A stretch of 64,000 nucleotides of DNA from Escherichia coli 042 (GTDB lineage: Bacteria > Pseudomonadota > Gammaproteobacteria > Enterobacterales > Enterobacteriaceae), in the NCBI RefSeq assembly GCF_000027125.1, contig NC_017626.1; one strand, 5' to 3'. The first letter of the stretch is position 1, and the number at the start of each line of letters is the position of its first letter. The translations under genes were made by a program, and so were the position numbers. The notes beneath the pieces were generated by a model. That model worked only from the letters and a program-made list of their open reading frames with translations. It was not told the DNA's origin and ran no database searches. Below are positions 930 through 55,669 of this stretch, in pieces.

Positions 930-3821
930 ATGATTGGTACAACACCTTATCATGCGAAATATTTTGCGCATGAACTTTCCATTCTTCATTCAAACAATGG
1001 GGTGGACCGTCTGTCTCAATCGCTGTTTGATGCAAGCGTAGATCTAAACCCTCATCAAATTGAGGCGGCTCTTTTTGCTATCGAAAATCCGCTAAGCAAA
1101 GGTGTTGTGCTTGCCGATGAAGTTGGTTTGGGTAAAACCATTGAAGCTGGACTAGTGCTTTGCCAGTTGTGGGCTGAAAGAAAACGTAAACTGTTGATCA
1201 TTTGTCCTGCTTCACTGCGTCGCCAATGGGCGAGCGAGTTACAGGAAAAGTTCAATCTACCTTCTCAGGTGTTGGACGCGAAAATGTATAGCCAGCTTCA
1301 AAAAGAAGGGATCCATAATCCCTTAAATAATAAATCGATCACTATCATGTCATACCACTATGCTGCTCGGTTAGAAGAGAAATTGGTGGCTGAAATGTGG
1401 GATCTGGTTGTTATCGACGAAGCCCATAAACTGCGTAATGCTCATCGAGAAAGCAACAAAATGGGGCAAGCGTTAAAGCGTGCGCTTGATGGGCGGAAGA
1501 AATTACTACTGACCGCAACGCCTTTACAGAACTCGTTGATGGAACTGTATGGCATGTCGACGCTTATAGATGAACATACCTTCGGCGAAGTTAAAGCGTT
1601 CAGAAAGCAATATATGCAGGCAGATAGCGATATTGCGGAGTTGAAGGGGCGATTGTCGCGTTTTATCAAACGAACTCTACGCAAGAATGTGCTGGAGTAT
1701 ATCAAGTATACAGAACGTAAAGCGATCACTATTCCTTTCTATCCGAGCGAACAGGAGCAGGATCTTTATGAACGCGTACAAAAATTGCTTGAACGTGAGG
1801 ATAGCTATGCCTTACCAAAACGACACCGGCATCTGACGGGGCTTATACTCAGAAAACTACTTTCCTCAAGTACGAAAGCCGTATTGAATAACTTGCAGAT
1901 CCTTAAGACTCGTTTAGAAAGGTTAAAGCTGGAAGGTATCGTTGAAGATGATATGGACATCATCCAACAGATCATAATGGATGATGATCTTGAAGATGAC
2001 ATCGTTGAAGATGCCGAATCAGTAGCGCCAGATACAGAGTGCAAATCTGTGGATTCAGATGCGCTTCAGGCAGAAATCAATGAGCTGGAATCACTCATTG
2101 TCAAAGCAGAACAGATTGGCACTGATACCAAATCAAAAGAGTTGCTTTCTGGCCTGGAGCAAGGTTTTGCACAGCTTGCCGAAATGGGGGCTGCAAAAAA
2201 AGTCATCATCTTCACGGAGTCGATGCGAACTCAACAGTACCTTGCACATTTTCTGGAAAACAATGGCTACCAGGGAAAAGTAGTAACCTTTAGTGGCACA
2301 AACAATACACCGCAGGCAAACAAGATCTACCAGCAATGGCGCGAGGAATATCAGGGATCTTCTCGTATTACCGGGTCGGCGCAAATTGATAAACGCTCGG
2401 CTTTGATCGACCACTTCAAAGATCATGCTGAAATCATGATAGCTACAGAAGCTGCAGCTGAAGGGGTGAACCTGCAATTTTGTTCGCTACTGATCAATTA
2501 CGATTTCCCCTGGAACCCACAACGCATTGAACAGCGTATTGGACGTTGTCACCGATACGGGCAAAAATTTGATGTGGTTGTTATTAACTTCCTCAATCAG
2601 CGAAACCAGGCCGATCAACGCGTTCTTGAACTCTTAACTGAAAAGTTCAGCCTGTTTGATGGCGTGTTTGGCGCATCGGATAGTGTGCTTGGCAGCATAG
2701 AAAATGGTGTGGATTTTGAAAAAAGGATCCAGTCAATTTATGAGTCATGCCGTACCCCCGAGGAGATAGAGCTGGCTTTTGAAAGGTTGCAGAAAGAGCT
2801 GGAAGATGAAATCAATCTCAAGATGCAGAAGACGCAAGAACAGTTGCTTGAGCATTTTGATGAAGATATTCACGATATCCTTAAAATAAGGCTTGATGAA
2901 GCTCGGGAGCGCCTGGATAAAGTCGGTCGTTGGTTTTGGGCCGTGACCTGTCAGCAGCTCAAACAATATGCTGATTTTGATCATGAGCATCATCGTTTCA
3001 CTTTACGTGAATCAGTCAATGAACTGCCTGTCGGGCAGTACCAGCTGTTGCGCAAAGATGGCAGGCAAAATAGTGCGTTACAAATGCAGGATCACCACAG
3101 TTTTGCATATCGGATCAATCATCCGCTGGGTGAGTACGTCATTGAGGGAGCCAAAGCCCAGGAGACGAAAACAGCTGAAGTCATCTTCGATTACAGTAAC
3201 CACACAACGAAAGTTTCGGTGGCTGAGCAGCTGAAAGGGCAATCAGGATGGTTAACACTAAATTTGCTTACTGTTGATGCGTTTAACAGGCAGCAATTTT
3301 TAGTCTTTACCGCGAAAACTGACAACGGACGTGTGGTAGATGGTGAAGCTTGTAAACGTCTGTTCAACTTGTCTGCAATAACCAACGAAAAGCTGGATAA
3401 TTCGGCAAGTTTAGATGCATTACCTGATGACTTGATCTTACTCAAGAACAGGCAAATTGACGCCAGGCTTGCAGAAGTTTTGGAGCAGAACTATGTCCTT
3501 TTTGAAGCGGAAAGAGATAAGCTGGAAAAATGGGCTGAAGACATGATCTTTGCGGCGGAAGAAGCATTACGCGATACCAAAATGCAAATCAAGTCGTTGA
3601 AGCGAGAAGCCAGGCTGGCGCAATCGATCGAAGAACAAAAGCAAAACCAGGAAAAGCTTAAGCTACTGGAACGGCAGCAGAAGCGTCAACGTATGGAAAT
3701 TTTTGACATTGAAGATGAGATCGCCGACAAGAGGGATGAACTCATCAGTGCCCTTGAAGAGCGGATGAAGCAAAAGACGGATATCACCGAGCTGTTTACC
3801 ATCCGCTGGAAAGTTATTTAA
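930..3821 (+). CDS. SNF2-family (SF2) helicase/ATPase with C-terminal charged coiled-coil-like region; gene 1 of candidate defence operon
   Basis: 963-aa ORF from ATG 930; motifs in translation: LADEVGLGKT (motif I), VVIDEAHKLRN (DEAH), LLLTATPLQN (motif III), QRIGRCHRYGQK (motif VI); C-terminal E/K/Q-rich region. Confidence 0.85.
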   Translation: MIGTTPYHAKYFAHELSILHSNNGVDRLSQSLFDASVDLNPHQIEAALFAIENPLSKGVVLADEVGLGKTIEAGLVLCQLWAERKRKLLIICPASLRRQWASELQEKFNLPSQVLDAKMYSQLQKEGIHNPLNNKSITIMSYHYAARLEEKLVAEMWDLVVIDEAHKLRNAHRESNKMGQALKRALDGRKKLLLTATPLQNSLMELYGMSTLIDEHTFGEVKAFRKQYMQADSDIAELKGRLSRFIKRTLRKNVLEYIKYTERKAITIPFYPSEQEQDLYERVQKLLEREDSYALPKRHRHLTGLILRKLLSSSTKAVLNNLQILKTRLERLKLEGIVEDDMDIIQQIIMDDDLEDDIVEDAESVAPDTECKSVDSDALQAEINELESLIVKAEQIGTDTKSKELLSGLEQGFAQLAEMGAAKKVIIFTESMRTQQYLAHFLENNGYQGKVVTFSGTNNTPQANKIYQQWREEYQGSSRITGSAQIDKRSALIDHFKDHAEIMIATEAAAEGVNLQFCSLLINYDFPWNPQRIEQRIGRCHRYGQKFDVVVINFLNQRNQADQRVLELLTEKFSLFDGVFGASDSVLGSIENGVDFEKRIQSIYESCRTPEEIELAFERLQKELEDEINLKMQKTQEQLLEHFDEDIHDILKIRLDEARERLDKVGRWFWAVTCQQLKQYADFDHEHHRFTLRESVNELPVGQYQLLRKDGRQNSALQMQDHHSFAYRINHPLGEYVIEGAKAQETKTAEVIFDYSNHTTKVSVAEQLKGQSGWLTLNLLTVDAFNRQQFLVFTAKTDNGRVVDGEACKRLFNLSAITNEKLDNSASLDALPDDLILLKNRQIDARLAEVLEQNYVLFEAERDKLEKWAEDMIFAAEEALRDTKMQIKSLKREARLAQSIEEQKQNQEKLKLLERQQKRQRMEIFDIEDEIADKRDELISALEERMKQKTDITELFTIRWKVI

Positions 3822-3841
3822 TTGATTTGAAAGAGAAAATA

Positions 3842-6800
3842 ATGAGTAAGTACAACGAATTAGTTAAGAAGTTAAAAGAAATTTTTCAGATTGATCGACC
3901 AGAACTGGATTTCGGTATTTATCGTATTTTAAATGCACGTGCTGATGAAATTAACGACTATCTGGATAATAAGCTGAAGGCCAAAATCCAGTCTGCGCTG
4001 GCGGATGCAGGAAATGCCAATAAATCAGAATTAGAACATCAGTTGCAACTGACAATAAAAGCGGCAACTGATGCGGGTGTAGACCCTGCTGATAGCCCAA
4101 AAGTACAGGAGCTTAAAAAGCAACTGGCGGCTATGGCATCCGGAGCAAATGAGCATGAAAATGCAGTATTTTCCCATCTGCTCACTTTCTTTTCGCGTTA
4201 TTATGACAACGGCGATTTTATCAGCAAACGCCGTTATAAAGGTAATACCTACGCCATCCCCTATTCTGGCGAAGAAGTGATGTTGCACTGGGCAAATAAG
4301 GACCAGTACTACATTAAAAGCGGTGAAAACTTCGCTAATTATTCGTTCAAATTAGAAGACGGTCGTAAAGTTAGCTTTAAATTGCTCGCAGCGGACACAG
4401 CAAAAGATAACCGTAAAGATAATGAATTAGATCGCTGCTTTGTACTTATTGAGCCGCATGTTCGTACCAAAATTGATGAAGAAGGCGATGAGTACGAACA
4501 AGAATATAAGCCAGTAGAAGTGGTGAAAACTTCATCTGTGGTTGACGGTAAACTCGTTGAAACAGAAGAGTTAGTTATTCATTTCGAATATAAGGCAATG
4601 AAAAAGGGCACTAAGCAGGATGCTTTAGTGCAGTCCGCTATTTCAAAAATTCTGGCTGATAAAACAGTACAACAGCATTGGGTTGATCTTGCTAAACGTG
4701 CGCCAACCGAAAAAAATCCGTCACGTACAGAGTTGGAGCGTCATTTAACAACATATACCCAACGTAATACGGCTGACTACTTTATTCATAAAGATCTCGG
4801 TGGCTTTTTAACGAACGAACTGGATTTTTATATTAAAAATGAAGTAATGAATCTCGATAATGTGCAAAATGCAGAAGTGTTTGCTAATATTGAGAAACAA
4901 CTGCGCATGATTCAATGTTTGCGTGCTGTTGCGCTGGAACTCATCACTTTTTTGGCACAGATTGAGAATTTCCAAAAGAAACTTTGGACTAAGAAAAAGT
5001 TTGTTGTAGAGACAAACTATATATTTACCGTAGATAAGTTACCAGAGGAATTATATTCAATTGTCATTAAGAATGATGCCCAATGGGAACAATGGAAGCA
5101 ATTAGGTTTCCTCAGCGATTTTTCGGGAGATAGAGAGAAAACTCTGAAAGAAAAACAAGGGTTAATTGTTGATACTTCATTATTTGATTCCAAGTTCAAA
5201 GAGAAATTTATCAACAATATCGCTGATGTTGACACAAATGTTTCCGCTTATTTATATAGTGGAGATAATTATCAAGTGTTAAATCTTATTAAAATAAAAT
5301 ATAATAATAAAGTTGATGGTATATATATAGATCCACCTTATAATACCAATGCGTCTGAGATTTTATACAAAAACGGTTATAAGGATAGCTCATGGTGTTC
5401 TTTAATGAGTTCTCGTTTAGAGATAAGTAAATCCTTATTAAAAGAAAATGCAGCTACTTGTACAACTATTGATGAGTATGAAGTTGCTAATTTGGAATTA
5501 TTGCTAAAAGAAACGTTTACAGGATATCAAATCAGACCTGTTGTTATTGAATATAACCATCGAGGACGAGTTAAAAGTAATTTCGCTATTACCCATGAAT
5601 ATGCTTTATGGACCTTACCAGAAAATAAAGATGTAATATCGAGACAAGTTGAAATATCAGAAGAAATTAGGCGTAACTTGCGTAGAACTGGTTCAGGTTC
5701 TACTCGTGCCGAATCTGAAAGTCAATTTTATGGCATCGAAGTTGACAATAATACCCTCGAGATTGTCAATGTAACCGAAGCTTTACCAAGTTTAGATTCA
5801 GCAATTCCTACGCATCTAAATAAAGATACAACAATGGTATGGCCAGTAGATGACCAAGGGGTTGAGCGGCGCTGGTACTATGGGCGAGATCGTGTTATTC
5901 GCGAAGCTAAAGAAGGTACTGTTTGGGCGAAAAGAATAAAAGGTGAGATACAAATACATTACAGACAAGCAGGAAAACCTAAAATGCGTAAATCTGTATG
6001 GATTGGTCCAAAGCTTGACGCAAGTACCTATGGTTCGGAACTATTAAATAGTTTGTTTAACGTGACTCAGATTAATTTTTCTTTTCCAAAAAGTATTTAT
6101 GCGGTTAAGGAATGTTTAGAGTCGCTTAGTAATTCGAAGTATGCTCATTTCTTAGACTATTTTGCTGGCTCTGGTACTACAGGGCATGCAGTGGTAGATA
6201 TGAATAGGGATGATAATGGTTTTCGAAAATTTAGCTTGGTCGAACAAGGTGAATATTTTTATTCTGTTACCTTGCCTAGAGTAAAAAAAGCTATTTTTAC
6301 AACTGATTGGAAGTATGGAAAAGCACTAAGCTGTAATCCAGTTGAGCAGACATTAATAAAATATATTAAAATTGAGAGTTTTGAGGATACTCTTAACAAT
6401 ATAGCACTGAAACGTACTGAAACAACAAAGGATCTTTTCGACGATCTTAAAGAAATTCGAGAGGATTATGTTCTTAACTATATGCTTGAAACAGAAAGCA
6501 AAGGCTCACTACTCAATACTGATAATTTCAAAAAACCATTTAACTACGAAATGGATGTTACAACGGATTCCGCAGGTGCTACTGAGCGTAAGAACATCGA
6601 TTTAGTTGAAACTTTCAACTATCTCATTGGCTTACATGTGAAATCCATCGAATCCAATATCGAACGTGGCTATGTGCGTGTTGAAGGAACGCTACCAACT
6701 GGCGAGCGTACCCTTATTCTGTGGCGCGATTGCGACAAGATCGGCTATGAAGAATTGAATAAATATGCCAACAGATTCGATTTATATGCAAAAGAAAATA

Positions 6801-6946
6801 CGTTCGACGTTATCTATATCAATGGCGATCATAACTTACCTACCGCCTTTACCGTTGATGAAGAAGACGGCGAGATTGTTCGTAGCCTGAAAATCCGCCA
6901 GATCGAACCTGAATTCTTGAACCTGATGTTTGCGGAGGAGGTTTAA
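3842..6946 (+). CDS. large beta-class N6-adenine/N4-cytosine-type DNA methyltransferase (Type III Mod-like core with N- and C-terminal extensions); gene 2
   Basis: ORF track opens at TTG 3827; first ATG 3842 with AAGAG upstream, 20 bp after gene 1 stop; motif IV DPPY (about 5330-5341) precedes motif I FAGSGTT (about 6161-6181) with about 285 aa between (TRD position). Confidence 0.8.
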   Translation: MSKYNELVKKLKEIFQIDRPELDFGIYRILNARADEINDYLDNKLKAKIQSALADAGNANKSELEHQLQLTIKAATDAGVDPADSPKVQELKKQLAAMASGANEHENAVFSHLLTFFSRYYDNGDFISKRRYKGNTYAIPYSGEEVMLHWANKDQYYIKSGENFANYSFKLEDGRKVSFKLLAADTAKDNRKDNELDRCFVLIEPHVRTKIDEEGDEYEQEYKPVEVVKTSSVVDGKLVETEELVIHFEYKAMKKGTKQDALVQSAISKILADKTVQQHWVDLAKRAPTEKNPSRTELERHLTTYTQRNTADYFIHKDLGGFLTNELDFYIKNEVMNLDNVQNAEVFANIEKQLRMIQCLRAVALELITFLAQIENFQKKLWTKKKFVVETNYIFTVDKLPEELYSIVIKNDAQWEQWKQLGFLSDFSGDREKTLKEKQGLIVDTSLFDSKFKEKFINNIADVDTNVSAYLYSGDNYQVLNLIKIKYNNKVDGIYIDPPYNTNASEILYKNGYKDSSWCSLMSSRLEISKSLLKENAATCTTIDEYEVANLELLLKETFTGYQIRPVVIEYNHRGRVKSNFAITHEYALWTLPENKDVISRQVEISEEIRRNLRRTGSGSTRAESESQFYGIEVDNNTLEIVNVTEALPSLDSAIPTHLNKDTTMVWPVDDQGVERRWYYGRDRVIREAKEGTVWAKRIKGEIQIHYRQAGKPKMRKSVWIGPKLDASTYGSELLNSLFNVTQINFSFPKSIYAVKECLESLSNSKYAHFLDYFAGSGTTGHAVVDMNRDDNGFRKFSLVEQGEYFYSVTLPRVKKAIFTTDWKYGKALSCNPVEQTLIKYIKIESFEDTLNNIALKRTETTKDLFDDLKEIREDYVLNYMLETESKGSLLNTDNFKKPFNYEMDVTTDSAGATERKNIDLVETFNYLIGLHVKSIESNIERGYVRVEGTLPTGERTLILWRDCDKIGYEELNKYANRFDLYAKENTFDVIYINGDHNLPTAFTVDEEDGEIVRSLKIRQIEPEFLNLMFAEEV

Positions 6947-6948
6947 GA

Positions 6949-9900
6949 ATGGCTAAAAAACCGACCACCGGTAAAGCAGTTAAAAAAGAGACTAACAGCA
7001 AGCTGAGCTTTCATAAGCAGTTGGTTTTAAACCGCTTTATGTTCCATTTTTTTAAAGATGGCACATTGCAAGGTTTGAAGAATCGGTTAGGCGAGGATCG
7101 CTTTGAAGGCATCCATGAAGATGGCCAAAGCTTATTCTTCCATGAGCTGAGTAACTATTTATTCGAGGTCGATCTTATCGATCTCGATGAACTGCGTCGT
7201 TACGATCTCAATATCGTGCAGCACTGGCAGCAGATAACCGAGCACCGTAATCGTAAAGAAGACACAGTGCTGAACATGAAATATTTTCAGTACTTGTCGC
7301 TTCTGTTTACCGAGATCTACCTGGACTGGTACTTCAACCGTAAACAGCAATTACTCGATGGGCTAAATAACGAGCTGGCAGCATACAATGCTGAAAATGA
7401 TAAAACAGCAAAAGACCGGGCTAATCAGTTCAAATCATACGTTCTGGATGATTTGAATAAACTGGCATACTGGAACGCTACTGGTTCTGGTAAGACACTG
7501 CTATTACATGTCAATATTTTGCAATATTTACATTATTTCCAGAACGGTAATAGCCATCATTACCCGGATAAAATCATCCTGCTTACGCCGGATGAACGCC
7601 TATCGAAGCAACATTTAGATGAACTGGAAAACTCAGGATTTACCCAATACCAGTTATTCGATAAGAGTAAATCCGCGCCATTTAAAGGCACGATTGAAGT
7701 TATTGATATCAATAAACTTGCCGATGAAATGGGTGACAAAACTGTTGCCGTTGAGGCATTTGAAGGCAACAATCTGGTCTTGATTGATGAAGGGCATAAA
7801 GGCACAGGAAGTGCTGCTGGTGCCTGGATGCGCCGTCGTGACAAATTAACGCGTGACGGATTTGCGTTTGAATATTCAGCAACTTTTGGCCAGGCAGTGG
7901 CCGGTGGCAATAATGTTGAGGCAGTTGAAACAGAAATTCAGAAGAAAAAAGCAAAGCTGCTTTTTGAAACAACTGCCTTAGGTAAACTGAGCGAAGAACA
8001 GTTAGCGCAAATAGCATTAACCAGCGAAGAACAACGTGATGCGCGTATTCAGGCGACACGAGAAGTCTATGGGAAATCGATTCTGTTCGATTACTCCTAT
8101 AAATTCTTCTATGAGGATGGTTATGGTAAAGAATCACTGATTCTTAACCTTAATCCTGAAGAGGATAAAAAAGATGAGCGTCGGTATGAGTATTTTACCG
8201 CGTGTTTGCTCAGCTTTTATCAGCAACAATATTTATTCAATAAGAATAAAGAAAAATTAAATGAATTTAATATCGAAAAACCGCTATGGGTTTTTGTCGG
8301 TAACACCGTAAGTGGTGAAGATTCAGACATTCACGCAGTACTGCGTTTTTTAGCATGGTTTTTAAATCATGAATCGCAGGCAAAATCGTGGATTAAAGAT
8401 CTCATTGAAAATAAAGCGCGAATTCTTGATACCAAAGAGCGTAACATTTTTGAAAATCGCTTTACCGCACTAATGAACGGCCCGGAAGATATCTACGCAG
8501 ATATTCTTTCTCGTTTGTTTAACACCACTCACTCAGGTCAGAGACTGCGAGTTCTGAATTTAATAGGCAGTAAAGGTGAACTGGCATTACAGGTTGGTGA
8601 GGCCGAACCGTTTGGTCTTATCAATATTGGTGATGCACCGTCTCTTTACAAAATGTGTGAAGAGGATACGACATTTGATTATCAGAGAGATGATTTTGCG
8701 AAGTCACTCTTTCATACGTTAAATGACAAAGACTCGCAACTACATATTTTGATCGGCTCGCGAAAATTTACTGAAGGCTGGAGCAGTTGGCGCGTCTCAA
8801 CGATGGGATTGCTCAATATGGGCCGTGGAGAAGGTTCACAGATCATTCAGTTATTTGGTCGTGGCGTTCGCCTTAAAGGTCGCAATTATTCTTTGAAACG
8901 CAGTACACCCGGTGAGCGTCCGAAAGGGTTGCATCTGGAAAAATTAGAGACACTGAATGTATTCGGTGTACGTGCCGATTACATGGCAACCTTTAAACAA
9001 TACCTGGAAGATGAAGGGATTACGCCAAGTGACGAGATCCTTGAGCTGAATTTTGAAACTCGGCCAAATATGCCAGCAACCAGGCTTAAAACACTTAAGC
9101 TTAAAGATGGTTATAAAGATAATCAAAGACTCGGCTTTAAACGTGTCTATTTTCCCGAATTGTATGAAGTTCCTGCTGATTTTCAGGGGAAAATTAAGCA
9201 GCCGCATATTAAGCTGGACCTATACCCGAAACTTGAGTCGATTGATACCAGCAGAAAAGGGGACAATACTCCGGTTAACGTGCGTAATGAAGCGAAGTTA
9301 GATTATAAAATCATTAGTGCGTTTGATTTTGATCGGCTTTATCTCGCCATTCAGAATTATAAACTACAACGCGGCTGGTCAAATTTACGTGTGGATAAAC
9401 AACGTTTGATCGACTTTTGTACCGGTAAGACAAAGATCGGAAATAGTTGGTATACCCTTTTGATTCCAGCTTCAGAGCTTGAGATTAAGCAATATGCAGA
9501 TATTGCTAAGCAGGAAGATATTATGCTTCGTCTGCTGACTGATTATACTGATCGCTTTTACAACACATTGAAAAATGCTTATGAAGGTCAGTTTTATGAA
9601 GTCACGCAGGTGAAAGAAGATGATCCTGGTATGATCAAAATGTACCATTTCGAGATCGAAGAAACTGATGATGGGTTGGCATATGCCAGTCGGCTGGAAC
9701 AATTACAACAATTGGTCATCGACGGCGAAATCGGTAAAGCAAAATCCTGGAGTGCATCCGGGATGGTTGCTATTACCTTTGATAAACATCTCTATTATCC
9801 ACTTCTTTCGATTGAAAAAAATGCCAACATACCGCTAAAAATGCGACCGGCAGCACTGGGTGCATCAAGTGAGATTACTTTTGTCCATGATCTTCAGTCT

Positions 9901-22224: not shown

Positions 22225-22461
22225 CTTATTATAATAAGCGCAAGGGTAAACGTTCCTTGCGCTTTCTTAAATTAAGAAGTCGCAATGAGTATTACTTTGT
22301 AAATTGCAGGGGATTGTTTAGCTATCTGTATAACCTGAATGTTAGTACTCATTCTTCCTGGTAGTTATTTACCAATATAATTCCATTCACCATTTTTTAA
22401 TTCAAACAGTTCTGGAAGAGATGACGGTTGCAGAGTCATACGTTTGAGTGGTGCATTTTCA

Positions 22462-23040
22462 TCACCCGGGATAGGCTTCTATACCAATTATTGGGTCATT
22501 ACCCAACTCAATATTAGCATTAAGTAATGCGGCAAGGGCGAATCCGGAAGAATTTGCTACCCCTGTTACCGTCATTATCTGATCAATATAGATATCAATC
22601 CTTGGCTGCTCATTGGTCCATCTTTTTGCCTGAGAAGCTGGAAGGGTTGAAATATATCCTATCGTGGTTCCGGCATAACCAGGAACATTGCAACCAGGGC
22701 CTAATGTTATTTCATGAACTGTATAGTCCTCAACAGGATCGAAAGGGCCTTTCATAAATAAATTTAGCCGTAATCCTTTTGCTAACTCTGTGGCAGCATG
22801 CGCCTTTTTACATATACCACCATATATTTCGTCTAAAGCTGAGGTGATTTTCAAGTTTCGATAGAGCATACGTCCTGTTGTTGTAATACCATTGAATTCT
22901 CTGCATGTTTCTGTCACATAATTAAATGGCCAGGACTCTTTACTAATATCAAGTTTTCTAATTTCGACAACGCTTTTTCCATCGTAATTATGGTTATTGC
23001 CACGAGCAAGAGGCGGAAGATAGATATTTTCCGTATCCAT
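22462..23040 (-). CDS. yjiC: uncharacterised protein at the K-12 yjiC position
   Basis: 192-aa ORF; position between uxuR and iraD; length not verified against K-12. Confidence 0.55.
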   Translation of the reverse strand: MDTENIYLPPLARGNNHNYDGKSVVEIRKLDISKESWPFNYVTETCREFNGITTTGRMLYRNLKITSALDEIYGGICKKAHAATELAKGLRLNLFMKGPFDPVEDYTVHEITLGPGCNVPGYAGTTIGYISTLPASQAKRWTNEQPRIDIYIDQIMTVTGVANSSGFALAALLNANIELGNDPIIGIEAYPG

Positions 23041-23822
23041 GCGTGCACGTTCATGTTTACGTGTTAACTCACTGTCGACTTTTGGATGATGAAGGAAGTG
23101 ATTATCTGTAATAATTTAACTCTGAAGGGCATTGCTTAATGGCATAGACATAATAGTTACCTTTATGAGTATTTCACTGATGCTTAGAAAAATAGATAAA
23201 TTTTTCTGTAGTAAAAAGAGAAGTAAACAAATGACATGCATGTTTCTGTTGTAGTGATATCAACTCTACACAGTGATATTAAATGGTGGGAAACACTCTA
23301 AAGTATCAAAAAACGCTCATTTAAAATTATTTGCATGCAATTTAAAAGCATATCTTATTACTAATTGGAATTTGATGTTGCTATATTGATGTCTATATTA
23401 ATAATGCCTGTGAATGGTATTTTTGATGTATTTGATATGTTATCAATTTATATTATTTACAAACTAATTGTTTTAAATAATACATAGCTGATTATGCGGA
23501 AATAAATAATTTCCCACCGGAATTAAGTAGCGGTGGTGACAAGTATTTTCATCTACGTAACTATTCGGAATATTCAGAATATACTAGCGGTTTTTTTTTG
23601 AGTTTGATGATTTTTATCAAATCATGACTTTTTTCCTGAAAAGTCAGTAGATATTCATAGGCAAGTAAGGTTTTATACTTTGCTGACAGGATTCAGGCCT
23701 GTCTCAGACTGACATGGATGTAATGAACAAAAGGGAATGGCTATGGAAAATGAGCATCAATACAGTGGTGCCCGGTGTTCAGGGCAAGCCGCATATGTTG
23801 CTAAACGTCAGGAGTGCGCAAA

Positions 23823-34116: not shown

Positions 34117-35349
34117 TCACCGCTCCTCCGCCAGCTCGGCAGCCTGATGTTGGCGCACGCGATTAAGCAATCCGGCCAGGGTGAAAACGACGATAACGCC
34201 TGCCACAACGGCTAACAGATGAAACGGCAAGCGACCGCTGTTAAACCACAGCCAGCGGCCGATTTCGACCGAGACAGACATCACCATCAGGATCACCATA
34301 TTCAGCGATGCGGAGACGGTCCCTTTCGGTAAGTTATTGGAAAACAGCGTAAAGCGGAATAAGGTCGGGAAAATCAAACCAATCCCGAAAGCATACAGAC
34401 TGGTGCCCAGCACCGACCACAGCCAGACGTGCGGTGACAGCAGATTGCCGATAATCAACAGCGCGAGGCCAACCAGTTGAAGGGGTACGGCACGCCAGAT
34501 AAAGCGCGGTTCGGTCGGATCTTTAACGAAACGCGCCACGATGGCATTCGCGACAATCACCGCGCCGAACACCGGAACCTGTGTCCAGGCGAACTGCGAA
34601 GTTGTTAAGCCGCCCGCGTCGATCAGGATCACCGGCGAGACAGCCACCCAACTCATCATGGGGATATAGCTTAAAGAGATGGTTGCTGCGCCAAAGAGGA
34701 ACAGCCGATTGCAAAAGACATTACGAAAATCGCGCAAGACGCTTTTGGCGCTAAATGGAACCGCGCCGCGCTTCACCGTCTCTGGCATCGCCAGCAGTAA
34801 GCCAACAAATGAGATAAAACCCATAACCGCAATGATGGCAAAAAGGACTTTCCAGTGCACAAAGTGCATCAGAGCTGCGCCGGAAAGCGGGCCAATAATC
34901 GGCGCAATCAGTACGATGGAGGTGATAATCGCCATCAACTTGATCCCTTTTGTCTGTCCGAACGCCTCCTGCACCGTGACATAACCAACGGTGGCAATAA
35001 AACAGATACTGGTGCCCTGAATTGCACGCGCGATAAGAAACTGTGTCATAGACGTTGTGAACATTGTCGCAGCGCAGGCAAGGGTAAATATTAGCGCCCC
35101 GGTAATCAGCACCGGCCTGCGGCCAACCCTGTCGGAAAGCGGCCCCAGCAGCCACTGCAATGCCATGCCTCCAGCGAGATAGAGACTGACGGCAGCCGGG
35201 GCCAGACTGACATCGGCATTAAAATCACGGACCACATTAATGATCCCTGGCTGGATCAGGTCCGTCGACAGATACGCAGCAAAGTCATACAAAATCAACG
35301 CCATCGGGAAAAACAGCGTGGCGGCATGGCGGGCAAAAAAACGTGGCAT
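34117..35349 (-). CDS. mdtM: multidrug efflux MFS transporter
   Basis: 410 aa from [26 protein letters not shown]... Confidence 0.92.
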
Positions 35350-35662
35350 AACAAACAACTCCTTGTCCGGAGAACCCAATGGGGAAAACGAAATTCAATA
35401 CCGTCGGTAATGACGAAAGGCAGGCGAGAAGGACAAATGTACTGAATTTCATGTAATCAACCACACTGCCTGCGAATACACAGACAGAGAAATACCTTCT
35501 GACTCCAGGTCAGAATGTATAACGATTACAAATAGTCATCAGCACATTACACCTCTTTAATTGATGGCTTGCATAGAAAATATACACCTTAAGTGTAATT
35601 AAAATTTGGTAATGCTGCCAACTTACTGATTTAGTGTATGATGGTGATTTTAAGGTGCTTGC

Positions 35663-35938
35663 GTGGCTTCCATTTCCATCAGATGTCCTTCCTGCTCCGC
35701 TACTGAAGGCGTGGTGCGTAACGGCAAAAGCACTGCCGGACATCAGCGCTATCTCTGCTCTCATTGCCGTAAAACATGGCAACTGCAGTTCACTTACACC
35801 GCCTCTCAGCCCGGTACGCACCAGAAAATCATTGATATGGCCATGAATGGCGTCGGATGTCGCGCCAGTGCACGCATTATGGGCGTTGGCCTCAACACGG
35901 TTTTACGTCACTTAAAAAACTCAGGCCGCAGTCGGTAA
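35663..35938 (+). CDS. insA: IS1 InsA
   Basis: 91 aa, near-identical to copy 1 InsA. Confidence 0.9.
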
Positions 35939-36359
35939 CCTCGCGCATACAACCGGGCAGTGATGTGATTATCTGCGCTGAAATGGACGAACATTGGGGC
36001 TACGTCGGTGCTAAATCACGTCAGCGCTGGCTGTTTTACGCGTATGACAGGATACGGAGGACGGTTGTGGCCACGTCTTCGGTGAACGCACTCTGGCCAC
36101 ACTGGAGCGTCTTCTGAGCCTGCTGTCGGCCTTTGAGGTCGTGGTATAGATGACGGATGGCTGGCCGCTGTATGAATCACGCCTGAAGGGAAAGCTGCAC
36201 GTTATCAGCAAGCGTTACACTCAGCGCATTGAGCGACATAATCTGAATCTGAGACAACATCTGGCAAGGCTGGGACGGAAGTCACTGTCGTTCTCAAAAT
36301 CGGTGGAGCTGCATGACAAGGTCATCGGGCATTATCTGAACATAAAACACTATCAGTAA
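35857..36359 (+). pseudogene. insB: IS1 insB, frameshifted
   Basis: frame splits into 35857-36117 and 36150-36359; alignment with copy 1 shows a 1-bp deletion near ...acggttgtggccacgtcttcggtg and an in-frame TAG. Confidence 0.7.
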
Positions 36360-36530
36360 GTTGGAGTCATTACCCGACAGCGAGGTGTTTAGTGTGCCAT
36401 GTCAGGCGAGAAATTCTATTGGATGAATCAAGTCCAACTTACTCATTGTCAATTTCATGGTTGATTATTCGAAACGTGATGCTATTTCCAACATCAACGC
36501 TATAATTGCAGAATAATTGTAGATACATTT

Positions 36531-36845
36531 TTGTATATACAATTAGGGATGGCAATTATGCCAATGGAGTTTGAATGGGATGAAAACAAGGCCAAAAGTA
36601 ATCGGGTGAAACATGGCATCCGCTTTGAAGATGCGGTGTTATTGTTTGATGATCCACAACATTTGTCACAGCAAGAACGCATAGAAAACGGTGAGTATCG
36701 CTGGCAGACAATCGGCCTGGTTTACGGCATCGTGGTTATTCTGGTTGCGCATACCATCCGTTTCGAAAGCGGAAATGAAATTATTCGAATCATCAGTGCA
36801 CGAAAAGCAGATCGTAAAGAGAGGAATCGCTATGAGCATGGTTAA
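36531..36845 (+). CDS. BrnT-like toxin (DUF497 family)
   Basis: ...MEFEWDENKAKSNRVKHGIRFEDAVLLFDDP...IRIISARKA...; start ambiguous (ATG 36531/36549/36558). Confidence 0.65.
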   Translation: MYIQLGMAIMPMEFEWDENKAKSNRVKHGIRFEDAVLLFDDPQHLSQQERIENGEYRWQTIGLVYGIVVILVAHTIRFESGNEIIRIISARKADRKERNRYEHG

Positions 36846-37134
36846 ACATAAACGAGGGACCTCCTCTACACTCGATGTGCAGCATGAGGCCGAACTGAAG
36901 GCGCTGACGAATAAATCCGACGAAGATATTGATTACAGTGATATCCCACCTTCCAGCGATGAGCAATGGTCTAACGCCGAACGCGGTAAGTTTTATCGGC
37001 CATTGAAAACTCAGGCTTCGGTGCGTATTGATGCTGATGTGATGGAATGGTTGAAGCGACCAGGTAAAGGCTATCAAACTCGCCTGAACGCAATTTTACG
37101 TGAAGCGATGCTGCGCGATCAGAACAAAAAATAA
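36832..37134 (+). CDS. BrnA-like antitoxin (ribbon-helix-helix C-terminus)
   Basis: ATG overlaps toxin stop; ...SVRIDADVMEWLKRPGKGYQTRLNAILREAM... Confidence 0.6.
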   Translation: MSMVKHKRGTSSTLDVQHEAELKALTNKSDEDIDYSDIPPSSDEQWSNAERGKFYRPLKTQASVRIDADVMEWLKRPGKGYQTRLNAILREAMLRDQNKK

Positions 37135-37167
37135 TTCAGGCCGCCACATGGCGGCCATCATCCAAAA

Positions 37168-38124
37168 TTACTTCCTCAACCCCGCAAACGCTGCCCGAAT
37201 CTCTTCCTCCGGCAACTGAATCCCGATAAACACCATTGTGCTATGTGGTTTTTCATCGCCCCACGGGCGATCCCAGTCGGCGCTGTAGAGGCGCTGGACG
37301 CCCTGGAACAGCAGGCGGTTAGGTTCGCCGTCAATCCACAGCATCCCTTTGTAACGCAGCAGTTTATCTGCCGATTCCAGAAGCAGGTTTTCCATCACCC
37401 GGGAAACTTCGCTGATATCTACCGGGTAATCCAGTTCCACCACAATCGACGAAATATCGTTTTGTTTATCCGCGATAAAGTGGAAACGCGGTTTGGTGCT
37501 GACGACGTTCTCTTCCAGCATAAAACCGTTGGTGTTGAACAGCAGGCCCAGGTCGATGTCGCCGTGGGTGACGGTGTAGACCGGTGCACGGGCGTTGATG
37601 CGCGCCAGGCGTTCACGCAGTTTTTCTGCTTCGCCTGCGACGTCGGTTTTGGTCAGCAGAATACGGTCGGCGTAGCCAACCTGGGACTGGGCGATGGTGA
37701 ACTGGTTCATCTGCTCGTCGGCATGTACCGCATCCACCAGCGCAATCACACCGTCCAGCAGGTAACGCTGGCATAAAATCTCATGGGAGAAAAAGGTCTG
37801 AATAATCGGGCCGGGATCGGCCATGCCGGTGCATTCAATGACCAGACGGTCAAACTGAATATTGCCCTTGTCGAGATTATCCAGCAGGTCGAGTAGTGCG
37901 TCTTCCAGCTCGTTGGAGCGCGAACAGCAGATGCAGCCGTTGGTCAGCGTTTTGATCTGCGTGGCGCGGTCGCCAATTAGTTGATCATCAACGGAGACTT
38001 CGCCGAATTCGTTTTCAATCACGGCAATCTTGTAGCCGTGTTGTTCGTTAAGAATATGGCGCAGCAGGGTGGTTTTTCCCGCGCCTAAAAAACCGGTGAG
38101 TAGGGTAACTGCAATCGGGTTCAT
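37168..38124 (-). CDS. yjiA: CobW/P47K-family GTPase YjiA
   Basis: MNPIAVTLLTGFLGAGKTTLLRHIL...; 318 aa. Confidence 0.92.
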   Translation of the reverse strand: MNPIAVTLLTGFLGAGKTTLLRHILNEQHGYKIAVIENEFGEVSVDDQLIGDRATQIKTLTNGCICCSRSNELEDALLDLLDNLDKGNIQFDRLVIECTGMADPGPIIQTFFSHEILCQRYLLDGVIALVDAVHADEQMNQFTIAQSQVGYADRILLTKTDVAGEAEKLRERLARINARAPVYTVTHGDIDLGLLFNTNGFMLEENVVSTKPRFHFIADKQNDISSIVVELDYPVDISEVSRVMENLLLESADKLLRYKGMLWIDGEPNRLLFQGVQRLYSADWDRPWGDEKPHSTMVFIGIQLPEEEIRAAFAGLRK

Positions 38125-55346: not shown

Positions 55347-55434
55347 TTGGTGCGAGGGGGGGGACTTGAACCCCCACGTCCGTAAGGACACTAACACCTG
55401 AAGCTAGCGCGTCTACCAATTCCGCCACCTTCGC
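55347..55434 (-). tRNA. leuV: tRNA-Leu (anticodon CAG), 88 nt with one extra G in the variable arm (leuV position)
   Basis: reverse complement reads GCGAAGGTGG...CTTCAGG...CCTTACGGGACGTGGGGGTTCAAGTCCCCCCCCTCGCACCA; one base longer than copy 3. Confidence 0.85.
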
Positions 55435-55466
55435 ACAGTCATCTTACTTTTTTGATATCGCCTCGT

Positions 55467-55553
55467 TTGGTGCGAGGGGGGGGACTTGAACCCCCACGTC
55501 CGTAAGAACACTAACACCTGAAGCTAGCGCGTCTACCAATTCCGCCACCTTCG
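55467..55553 (-). tRNA. leuP: tRNA-Leu (anticodon CAG), 87 nt, C-to-U in variable arm (leuP position)
   Basis: as above with GTGTTCTTACGGAC instead of GTGTCCTTACGGAC. Confidence 0.9.
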
Positions 55554-55582
55554 CCCAGTGCGAGCAATATCAACGTGGTTTT

Positions 55583-55669
55583 TGGTGCGAGGGGGGGGAC
55601 TTGAACCCCCACGTCCGTAAGGACACTAACACCTGAAGCTAGCGCGTCTACCAATTCCGCCACCTTCGC
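55583..55669 (-). tRNA. leuQ: tRNA-Leu (anticodon CAG), 87 nt, canonical (leuQ position)
   Basis: full cloverleaf sequence ending CCA; third tandem copy with about 33-bp spacers. Confidence 0.93.

Follow-up and report, generated by a model that had tools for sequence, protein, structure and literature searches.

A restriction-gene-free allele of the immigration control region in Escherichia coli 042, with a defective IS1 and a BrnT/BrnA-family gene pair between mdtM and yjiA

Organization of the mdtM-yjiA interval

In the 64-kb stretch of the Escherichia coli 042 chromosome analyzed here (64,000 nucleotides, hereafter the window), the conserved anchors of the immigration control region (ICR) follow one another in the K-12 order: yjiN and mdtM, then yjiA, yjiX and btsT. 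The ICR, bounded by yjiN/mdtM and yjiA and also referred to as 'Hotspot 36' (PMC12707154), is the first-studied defence island, and its content varies in a cassette-like manner (PMC12707154, PMC3874153, PMC3032704, PMC3874165). In the window, mdtM and yjiA are separated by 1,818 bp (35350-37167, from the mdtM start codon at 35349 to the yjiA stop codon at 37168), an interval that is wholly made up of DNA upstream of mdtM, one IS1 element and a segment carrying the toxin-antitoxin gene pair brnTA (Table 1). An earlier first-pass annotation, made from the sequence, had placed the two genes 1.8 kb apart with only IS1 and a toxin-antitoxin pair between them, and a part-by-part reading of the 1,818 bp bears this out. 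The window is collinear over its whole length with strain BUCT2930 (NZ_CP059723.1), to which it is 99.95% identical across the first 35 kb, and the same five features are annotated by PGAP in near-identical genomes.

Table 1. Features of the mdtM-yjiA interval and its anchor genes (window coordinates)
Feature	Position	Strand	Evidence
mdtM, left conserved ICR anchor	34120-35349	-	NCBIfam NF011932 MdtM, 855 bits vs cut-off 700; mdtM in BUCT2930
mdtM upstream DNA, 258 bp	35350-35607	.	Collinear with K-12 and ST131-type genomes (blastn)
IS1, 767 bp, defective, at probable deletion scar	35608-36374	+	Both inverted repeats intact
insA ORF of IS1, intact, 91 aa	35663-35938	+	NCBIfam IS1 transposase; IS1/IS1595 zinc-binding N-terminal domain
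insB' lesions of IS1	36072-36148	+	Base-by-base comparison with DEC5E copy
brnT upstream DNA, 183 bp	36375-36557	+	Collinear with ST131-type haplotype from first base
brnT toxin gene, 95 aa, intact	36558-36845	+	Pfam PF04365; PGAP 'BrnT family toxin' WP_001297643.1
brnA antitoxin gene, 100 aa, intact	36832-37134	+	Pfam PF14384
GC-rich terminator-like hairpin between convergent brnA and yjiA	37139-37156	.	Terminator scan
yjiA (GTPase), right conserved ICR anchor	37168-38124	-	NCBIfam NF008578, 683 bits vs cut-off 361

The hairpin at the yjiA end of the interval consists of seven G-C pairs and a 4-nt loop, followed by a T-rich tail on the minus strand, and is a match to the consensus only. An Rfam scan of 35200-37300 provides no evidence of an RNA element, returning solely a sub-threshold chance match to drz-agam-1, which scores 21.5 bits where the gathering score is 37.

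A defective IS1 that lacks a target-site duplication

Members of the IS1 family are approximately 768 bp long, are bounded by terminal inverted repeats of roughly 23 bp, and express the transposase InsAB' from insA and insB' by a -1 frameshift. Simple insertion of IS1 generates a 9-bp target-site duplication, and the element is also known to promote adjacent deletions. The copy in the gap runs from GGTAATGCTGCCAACTTACTGAT to GTTGGAGTCATTACC, with both inverted repeats present, and is 90% identical to an intact IS1 located at 15716-16483 of the window. That second element provides a further example in the window of an IS1 at a deletion, since 8.8 kb of fim operon DNA is absent from its site.

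The insA ORF of the gap copy is intact, and the lesions reside in insB', as revealed by alignment with an intact 768-bp copy that occupies the same site in O55:H7 strain DEC5E. Relative to this reference, one G has been lost at 36072, which shifts the reading frame, and a TGG codon has become TAG at 36148; the equivalent IS1 copy is labelled 'frameshifted; internal stop' by PGAP. Because insB' is broken by both the single-nucleotide deletion and the nonsense change, the element is non-autonomous, and its description in the first-pass annotation as defective stands. Direct reading of the flanks (left, TTAAAATTT; right, CGACAGCGA) reveals no 9-bp target-site duplication around the element, which indicates that a rearrangement has occurred there. 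Among carriers of the element, it is intact in DEC5E, bears only the stop in ESY002 and STN0717-11, and bears both the stop and the frameshift in the window and in BUCT2930. The presence of an intact IS1 at the identical site in DEC5E, along with graded lesions elsewhere, indicates that decay came after the rearrangement.

Absence of the canonical restriction genes

The window was searched by tblastn with the K-12 HsdR/M/S, McrB/C, Mrr, SymE, YjiR and YjiT proteins, as well as with ST131-type Type I and Mrr-like proteins, and no hsd, mcr, mrr, symE, YjiR or YjiT homologue was found anywhere in its 64 kb at E ≤ 1e-3. The locus is an empty allele of the ICR, devoid of restriction genes, and the earlier statement that the canonical restriction hot spot is unoccupied is upheld by this search. 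The accompanying figure of about 25 kb of restriction genes in K-12 was too high: in K-12 the interval from mdtM to yjiA measures 19,389 bp, and restriction genes (mcrC to mrr) take up about 11 kb of it. Its full content is ytiE, rpnD, yjiR, yjiS, yjiT, yjiV, mcrCB, symE/symR, hsdSMR and mrr, and brnTA is absent. By blastn, homology to K-12 extends from mdtM to position 4791 of the K-12 comparison segment (L004), where it stops at the left end of IS1 (window 35608), and it restarts exactly at the yjiA stop codon (37168, equivalent to L004:23910).

The strain should not be called restrictionless, because an intact Type III-like system of three genes is present at 930-10329, encoding a DrmD-like SNF2 helicase together with a methyltransferase and a restriction enzyme, both of Type III and both with a PADLOC E-value of 0. 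This system ends about 25 kb from the ICR, and its region corresponds to Hotspot 37, between lptG and uxuR (PMC12707154). The first-pass annotation had noted a different candidate restriction system at about this distance, near leuX; the intact candidate and its spacing are as described, but leuX is absent from the 64-kb window, whose sole tRNA genes are three copies of tRNA-Leu(CAG) at 55348-55669.

The BrnT/BrnA pair

Judged by sequence, the gene pair next to yjiA is a bona fide BrnT/BrnA-family module. BrnT matches the Pfam family BrnT_toxin (PF04365, formerly DUF497) over model positions 1-77 of 77 (E 4.7e-24), and BrnA matches BrnA_antitoxin (PF14384) over positions 1-68 of 68 (E 3.1e-17). 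These end-to-end matches confirm the earlier reading of a DUF497 toxin paired with a ribbon-helix-helix antitoxin. Structural homologs lead to the same assignment: BrnT aligns over its full length with the toxin chain of a solved toxin-antitoxin complex (PDB 7VD7_A, E 4.1e-52), and residues 14-57 of BrnA align with the antitoxin fragment present in the same crystal structure (E 4.9e-16). Neither protein is matched by the NCBIfam or PADLOC models, and family membership is settled by the Pfam and PDB searches.

The pair resembles BrnT/BrnA of Brucella in its Pfam families, in its toxin-first order and in having an antitoxin with a C-terminal ribbon-helix-helix, but the resemblance between the toxins themselves is distant (Brucella abortus BrnT, PDB 3U97_A, E 1.6e-4), the 7VD7 toxin being far closer. 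Toxin-antitoxin gene order is listed for the BrnT/BrnA family (PMC11980606). In the window the two ORFs overlap, as had been proposed, but they do so by 14 nt rather than through a simple stop/start junction. BrnT belongs to the RelE/ParE (BECR-fold) superfamily, the Brucella protein is an RNase in vitro, and the C-terminal ribbon-helix-helix domain of BrnA autoregulates the operon (PMC11980606).

A perfect TATAAT box (36501-36506) precedes brnT and is followed by a palindrome with 14-nt arms that are 93% complementary (36514-36545). It is plausible that these elements are, respectively, a candidate promoter and a candidate operator for BrnA. Compared with the ST131 allele, pN/pS is 0.43 for brnT and about 0.12 for brnA, values that derive from small counts (8-10 substitutions per gene). 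Most likely, the surviving operon still works as a type II toxin-antitoxin module, for which the intact ORFs and a pN below pS offer indirect support. In such a module, BrnT would act as an RNase of the RelE fold and arrest translation, the N-terminal part of BrnA would bind the toxin, and its C-terminal ribbon-helix-helix would repress the operon at the palindrome just upstream of brnT; both the toxicity and the autoregulation are predictions. A literature search found no published functional experiment on the E. coli brnT/brnA pair.

Correspondence with the ST131-type haplotype

A close relative of the window allele is the ICR of ST131-type strains, typified by ZH193 (NZ_CP014497.1), in which the order is mdtM-rpn-yjiR-yjiS-symE-Type I hsdR/S/M-Mrr-like-brnT-brnA-yjiA. 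The same haplotype is present in strain 4993 and, by junction matches, in Nissle 1917. Its Type I proteins share about 24% identity with those of EcoKI, which places the system in a different family, and its Mrr-like (Type IV) enzyme is 388 aa in length. The brnT upstream region, brnT, brnA and yjiA of the window are collinear with this haplotype and 98% identical to it, and the mdtM flank is collinear up to IS1. In contrast, the ST131/Nissle-type allele retains the 11.27 kb containing rpn, yjiR, yjiS, symE, the Type I hsdR/S/M genes and the Mrr-like gene, at the position where the window has IS1.

The break points can be placed to the base. Collinearity with the ZH193 segment (L007) proceeds to L007:2731, ends at the left end of IS1 (window 35608), and resumes at the first base past the element (36375, equivalent to L007:14001), a position that precedes the start codon of the Mrr-like gene in ZH193 by 14 bp. 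Between these points, 11,269 bp of ZH193, from rpn to the Mrr-like gene, is represented in the window by IS1. A segment of 11,269 bp exchanged for one IS1 with no target-site duplication is what an IS1-associated deletion classically leaves behind. In addition, because the right-hand sequence is collinear with a haplotype that itself bears brnTA, the toxin-antitoxin pair appears to be a survivor of the event rather than a replacement for what was lost.

Distribution among complete genomes

The pan-genome comparison of the mdtM-yjiA interval that the first-pass annotation had suggested was run across a collection of 5,426 complete E. coli genomes, from which all counts below are taken, and the short allele proves to be common. 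The brnTA segment (36375-37167) lies beside yjiA in 2,112 of the genomes (39%). It is single-copy in every one of these carriers and chromosomal in 2,111 of them, and in about 1,000 genomes it occurs beside yjiA without a window-type IS1 and alongside restriction genes. The pair is accessory and does not have the core status that the first-pass annotation had named as a refuting outcome. Partial alleles also exist, in which brnT is lost or disrupted and brnA is kept.

The junction between IS1 and brnT is found in 1,112 genomes, and mdtM and brnTA are no more than about 1.2 kb apart in 1,099; an mdtM-IS1-brnTA arrangement, present in about 1,100 complete E. coli genomes, is not unusual. The mdtM-IS1 junction in the form seen in the window, and with it the full set of both junctions, is restricted to about 449 genomes, including E24377A and several STEC, and DEC5E has the same arrangement as the window. 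The difference between the 449 left junctions and the 1,112 right junctions arises because about 650 genomes carry a sister allele, in which the right junction is identical but, on the left, 263 bp copied from the yghW-yghX locus is joined to mdtM at a point 21 nt within the 5' end of that gene. The identity of the right junction in the two alleles shows that IS1 is anchored on the brnT side and that rearrangement took place at its left end, which has participated in at least two different events.

Origin of the allele

Taken as a whole, these features make it likely that the window carries a deletion allele of the E. coli ICR, derived from an ST131-type haplotype by an IS1-associated event. 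The order and mechanism that we infer for the deletion are as follows. The ancestor would have had the arrangement mdtM-rpn-yjiR-yjiS-symE-Type I hsdR/S/M (not of the EcoKI family)-Mrr-like Type IV-brnT-brnA-yjiA. An event associated with IS1, in which either the transposase produced an adjacent deletion or two IS1 copies recombined, would then have taken out 11.27 kb. The lost segment would have extended between points 258 bp upstream of mdtM and 14 bp upstream of the Mrr-like gene. One IS1, with no target-site duplication around it, would have stayed behind, and its insB' would subsequently have decayed by frameshift and nonsense mutation. As in known IS1-mediated deletions, a lone IS1 lacking a target-site duplication joins two sequences that relatives have 11 kb apart. 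Collinearity, and not phylogeny, is what suggests descent of the window allele from the ST131-type haplotype.

An undeleted intermediate would be expected to contain a simple insertion of this IS1, complete with target-site duplication, at one of the two break points. Synthetic junctions representing such an insertion at the right or left break point were used as queries, and none was matched in the 5,426 genomes. A two-piece match in Ec-91 was rejected, since it spans 445 bp for a 250-nt query and represents a different IS1 insertion. With no intermediate recovered, either adjacent deletion or IS1-IS1 recombination may have been at work.

Other explanations for the arrangement can be envisioned. 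One builds on the replacement proposed in the first-pass annotation: IS1 and brnTA would have come in as a mobile unit and displaced the hsd-mcr-mrr genes. Cassette-like exchange of whole ICR segments is known to occur (PMC3874153), and IS1 directly adjoins brnTA in the window. However, the sequence past IS1 follows the ST131-type haplotype from the very first base, the roughly 1,000 genomes that have brnTA beside yjiA without this IS1 have restriction genes as well, and the near-universal single-copy, chromosomal state of brnTA (2,111 of 2,112) indicates that it does not travel with IS1. Neither a target-site duplication nor a second IS1 bracketing brnTA is present. Replacement by a cassette is thus largely refuted and very improbable, brnTA being a yjiA-proximal resident in 2,112 of 5,426 genomes. 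It is more improbable still, to the point of being negligible, that a collapsed IS1 repeat has falsely joined mdtM to brnTA during assembly. IS1 occurs at a median of about 10 places in an E. coli genome, and multi-copy repeats of this kind can cause misjoins, but the identical join recurs in about 1,100 independently finished complete genomes, and both flanks read straight through the ends of the element.

The remaining possibility concerns where the deletion took place, and it is compatible with the deletion explanation, of which it is a refinement. The empty allele may have arisen once (or twice) elsewhere and arrived in this strain by homologous recombination of the mdtM-yjiA neighbourhood, a proposal that we consider somewhat favoured. 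Base-identical junctions occur in E24377A, DEC5E, several STEC and small commensal-type genomes, backgrounds that we take to be of different phylogroups. The mdtM flank of the window is 95.6% identical to K-12 as opposed to 99.8% to DEC5E. The first 35 kb contains 17 mismatches to the near-twin BUCT2930, but past about 42 kb every 2 kb contains 20-60, a shift that points to recombination patchiness nearby. Furthermore, the region is a known 'bastion of polymorphism' (PMC12707154). Against these observations stands the consideration that they are comparisons of sequence and not of phylogeny. For the deletion allele itself, its occurrence, or that of the IS1-brnT junction, in about 20% of genomes from unrelated lineages argues that this strain is probably not the originator, having either inherited the allele or gained it by homologous recombination rather than generated it.

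Relation to known ICR alleles and significance

Variability of the ICR, the existence of empty alleles and the presence of brnAT within the region have already been described, and hundreds of RefSeq genomes carry annotations of this exact allele. Across 9,040 enterobacterial genomes that have been surveyed, brnAT, symE/symR and rpn are listed as the toxin-antitoxin systems of the region (PMC12707154). 'Empty site' alleles are on record for E. coli C, W and Crooks (PMC12707154, PMC3032704, PMC3874153); hsd, mcr and mrr have been lost in W, which has pac instead, and in Crooks, where the changes involve IS elements (PMC12707154, PMC3874153, PMC3032704, PMC3874165). The window allele resembles these three in occupying the same slot between yjiN/mdtM and yjiA and in likewise lacking hsd, mcr and mrr, and it shares with Crooks the implication of IS elements. 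In E. coli C, yjiS and a remnant of hsdR persist, and the yjiS-yjiA distance is 13 kb shorter than in K-12 (PMC3874153). By this description the window differs from E. coli C, since it has no hsdR remnant and no yjiS side, shows no similarity to HsdR or to YjiR/YjiT, and bears a single IS1 at the scar. A database record named 'strain C' (NZ_CP029371.1, from cow's milk) is a strain other than laboratory E. coli C and contains a full mcrBC-hsd island. The 'empty site' of E. coli C is reportedly to be attributed to Sibley and Raleigh in 2004.

It is conceivable, though unlikely, that brnTA acts as a deletion barrier at the yjiA edge of the island or as an abortive-infection defence against phage. 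As an addictive module, it would permit IS1-driven deletions to remove restriction genes but not brnTA itself. If this were so, the 'empty' allele would keep a defence function, and the persistence of intact brnTA beside a decaying IS1 in about 1,100 genomes would be explained; the partial alleles that have lost or disrupted brnT while keeping brnA would fit as well.

Beyond the description of the strain, the importance of the locus is small. For the strain itself, the lack of EcoKI-type, McrBC and Mrr restriction at the canonical locus bears on how readily it can be transformed and how sensitive it is to phage, and the locus offers a tidy textbook example of the way in which IS1 may erode a defence island and spare a toxin-antitoxin module.

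IS1-associated rearrangements

An empty allele of the immigration control region (ICR), sister to the one in the window, is present in NZ_AP022478.1 (positions 3330-3592 of L010, the locus drawn from that genome) and in about 650 other genomes. In this sister allele, the left end of IS1 abuts a duplicated 263-bp stretch from the core yghW-yghX locus, which is fused 21 nt inside mdtM and thereby creates a chimeric MdtM N-terminus. This arrangement implies that IS1 mediated a translocation from a far-off part of the chromosome. ST131 strain 4993 has the ICR haplotype that carries brnTA, and its Type I hsdR is truncated by an IS1A (8546-9749 of L005, the locus from that strain), which is an independent case of the same island being eroded by IS1.

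A second IS1 in the window marks another probable deletion (see table). By comparison with K-12, 8,846 bp are absent at this element, removing fimB, fimE, fimA, fimI, fimC, fimD, fimF, fimG and most of fimH, and on this gene content type 1 fimbriae are expected to be missing from this strain. No target-site duplication is found at this IS1, as is also the case at the ICR IS1. The counterpart of the second element in the near-twin genome BUCT2930 is intact.

Features of the window outside the ICR
Feature	Window position	Size	Remarks
Three-gene defence candidate	930-10329		intact; in 'Hotspot 37' region
DrmD/BrxH-like SNF2 helicase		963 aa	member of defence candidate
Type III-like methyltransferase		1,034 aa	member of defence candidate
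Type III restriction enzyme		1,126 aa	member of defence candidate
Row of gene remnants	10991-12619		per annotation of collinear genome BUCT2930
Second IS1	15716-16483 (context 14527-16800)		between nanC and fimH 3′ remnant
fimH 3′ remnant	16484-16782		directly after second IS1
yjiC (DUF2686)	22365-23115		frameshifted per BUCT2930 annotation

Divergence along the window

Relative to BUCT2930, positions 1-35440 carry 17 mismatches in 35 kb, and within the compared span 40000-64000 the count from about 42 kb onward is roughly 20-60 mismatches per 2 kb. This jump in divergence points to a recombination boundary a few kilobases to the right of the ICR.

Decay of brnTA and possible turnover of defence genes

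Among matches to the brnTA segment, some genomes retain an intact brnA beside a disrupted brnT, and in others the brnA half (query positions 409-793) is the sole remainder. Retention of brnT with loss of brnA was not seen in a spread of 60 of the 2,112 records, as would be expected if brnT is toxic. In the row of remnants at 10991-12619, the gene for a phosphorothioate-DNA-binding restriction endonuclease and nanS (sialate O-acetylesterase) are both truncated, and an HNH endonuclease is present as a fragment. These remnants suggest that defence genes turned over earlier at this site.
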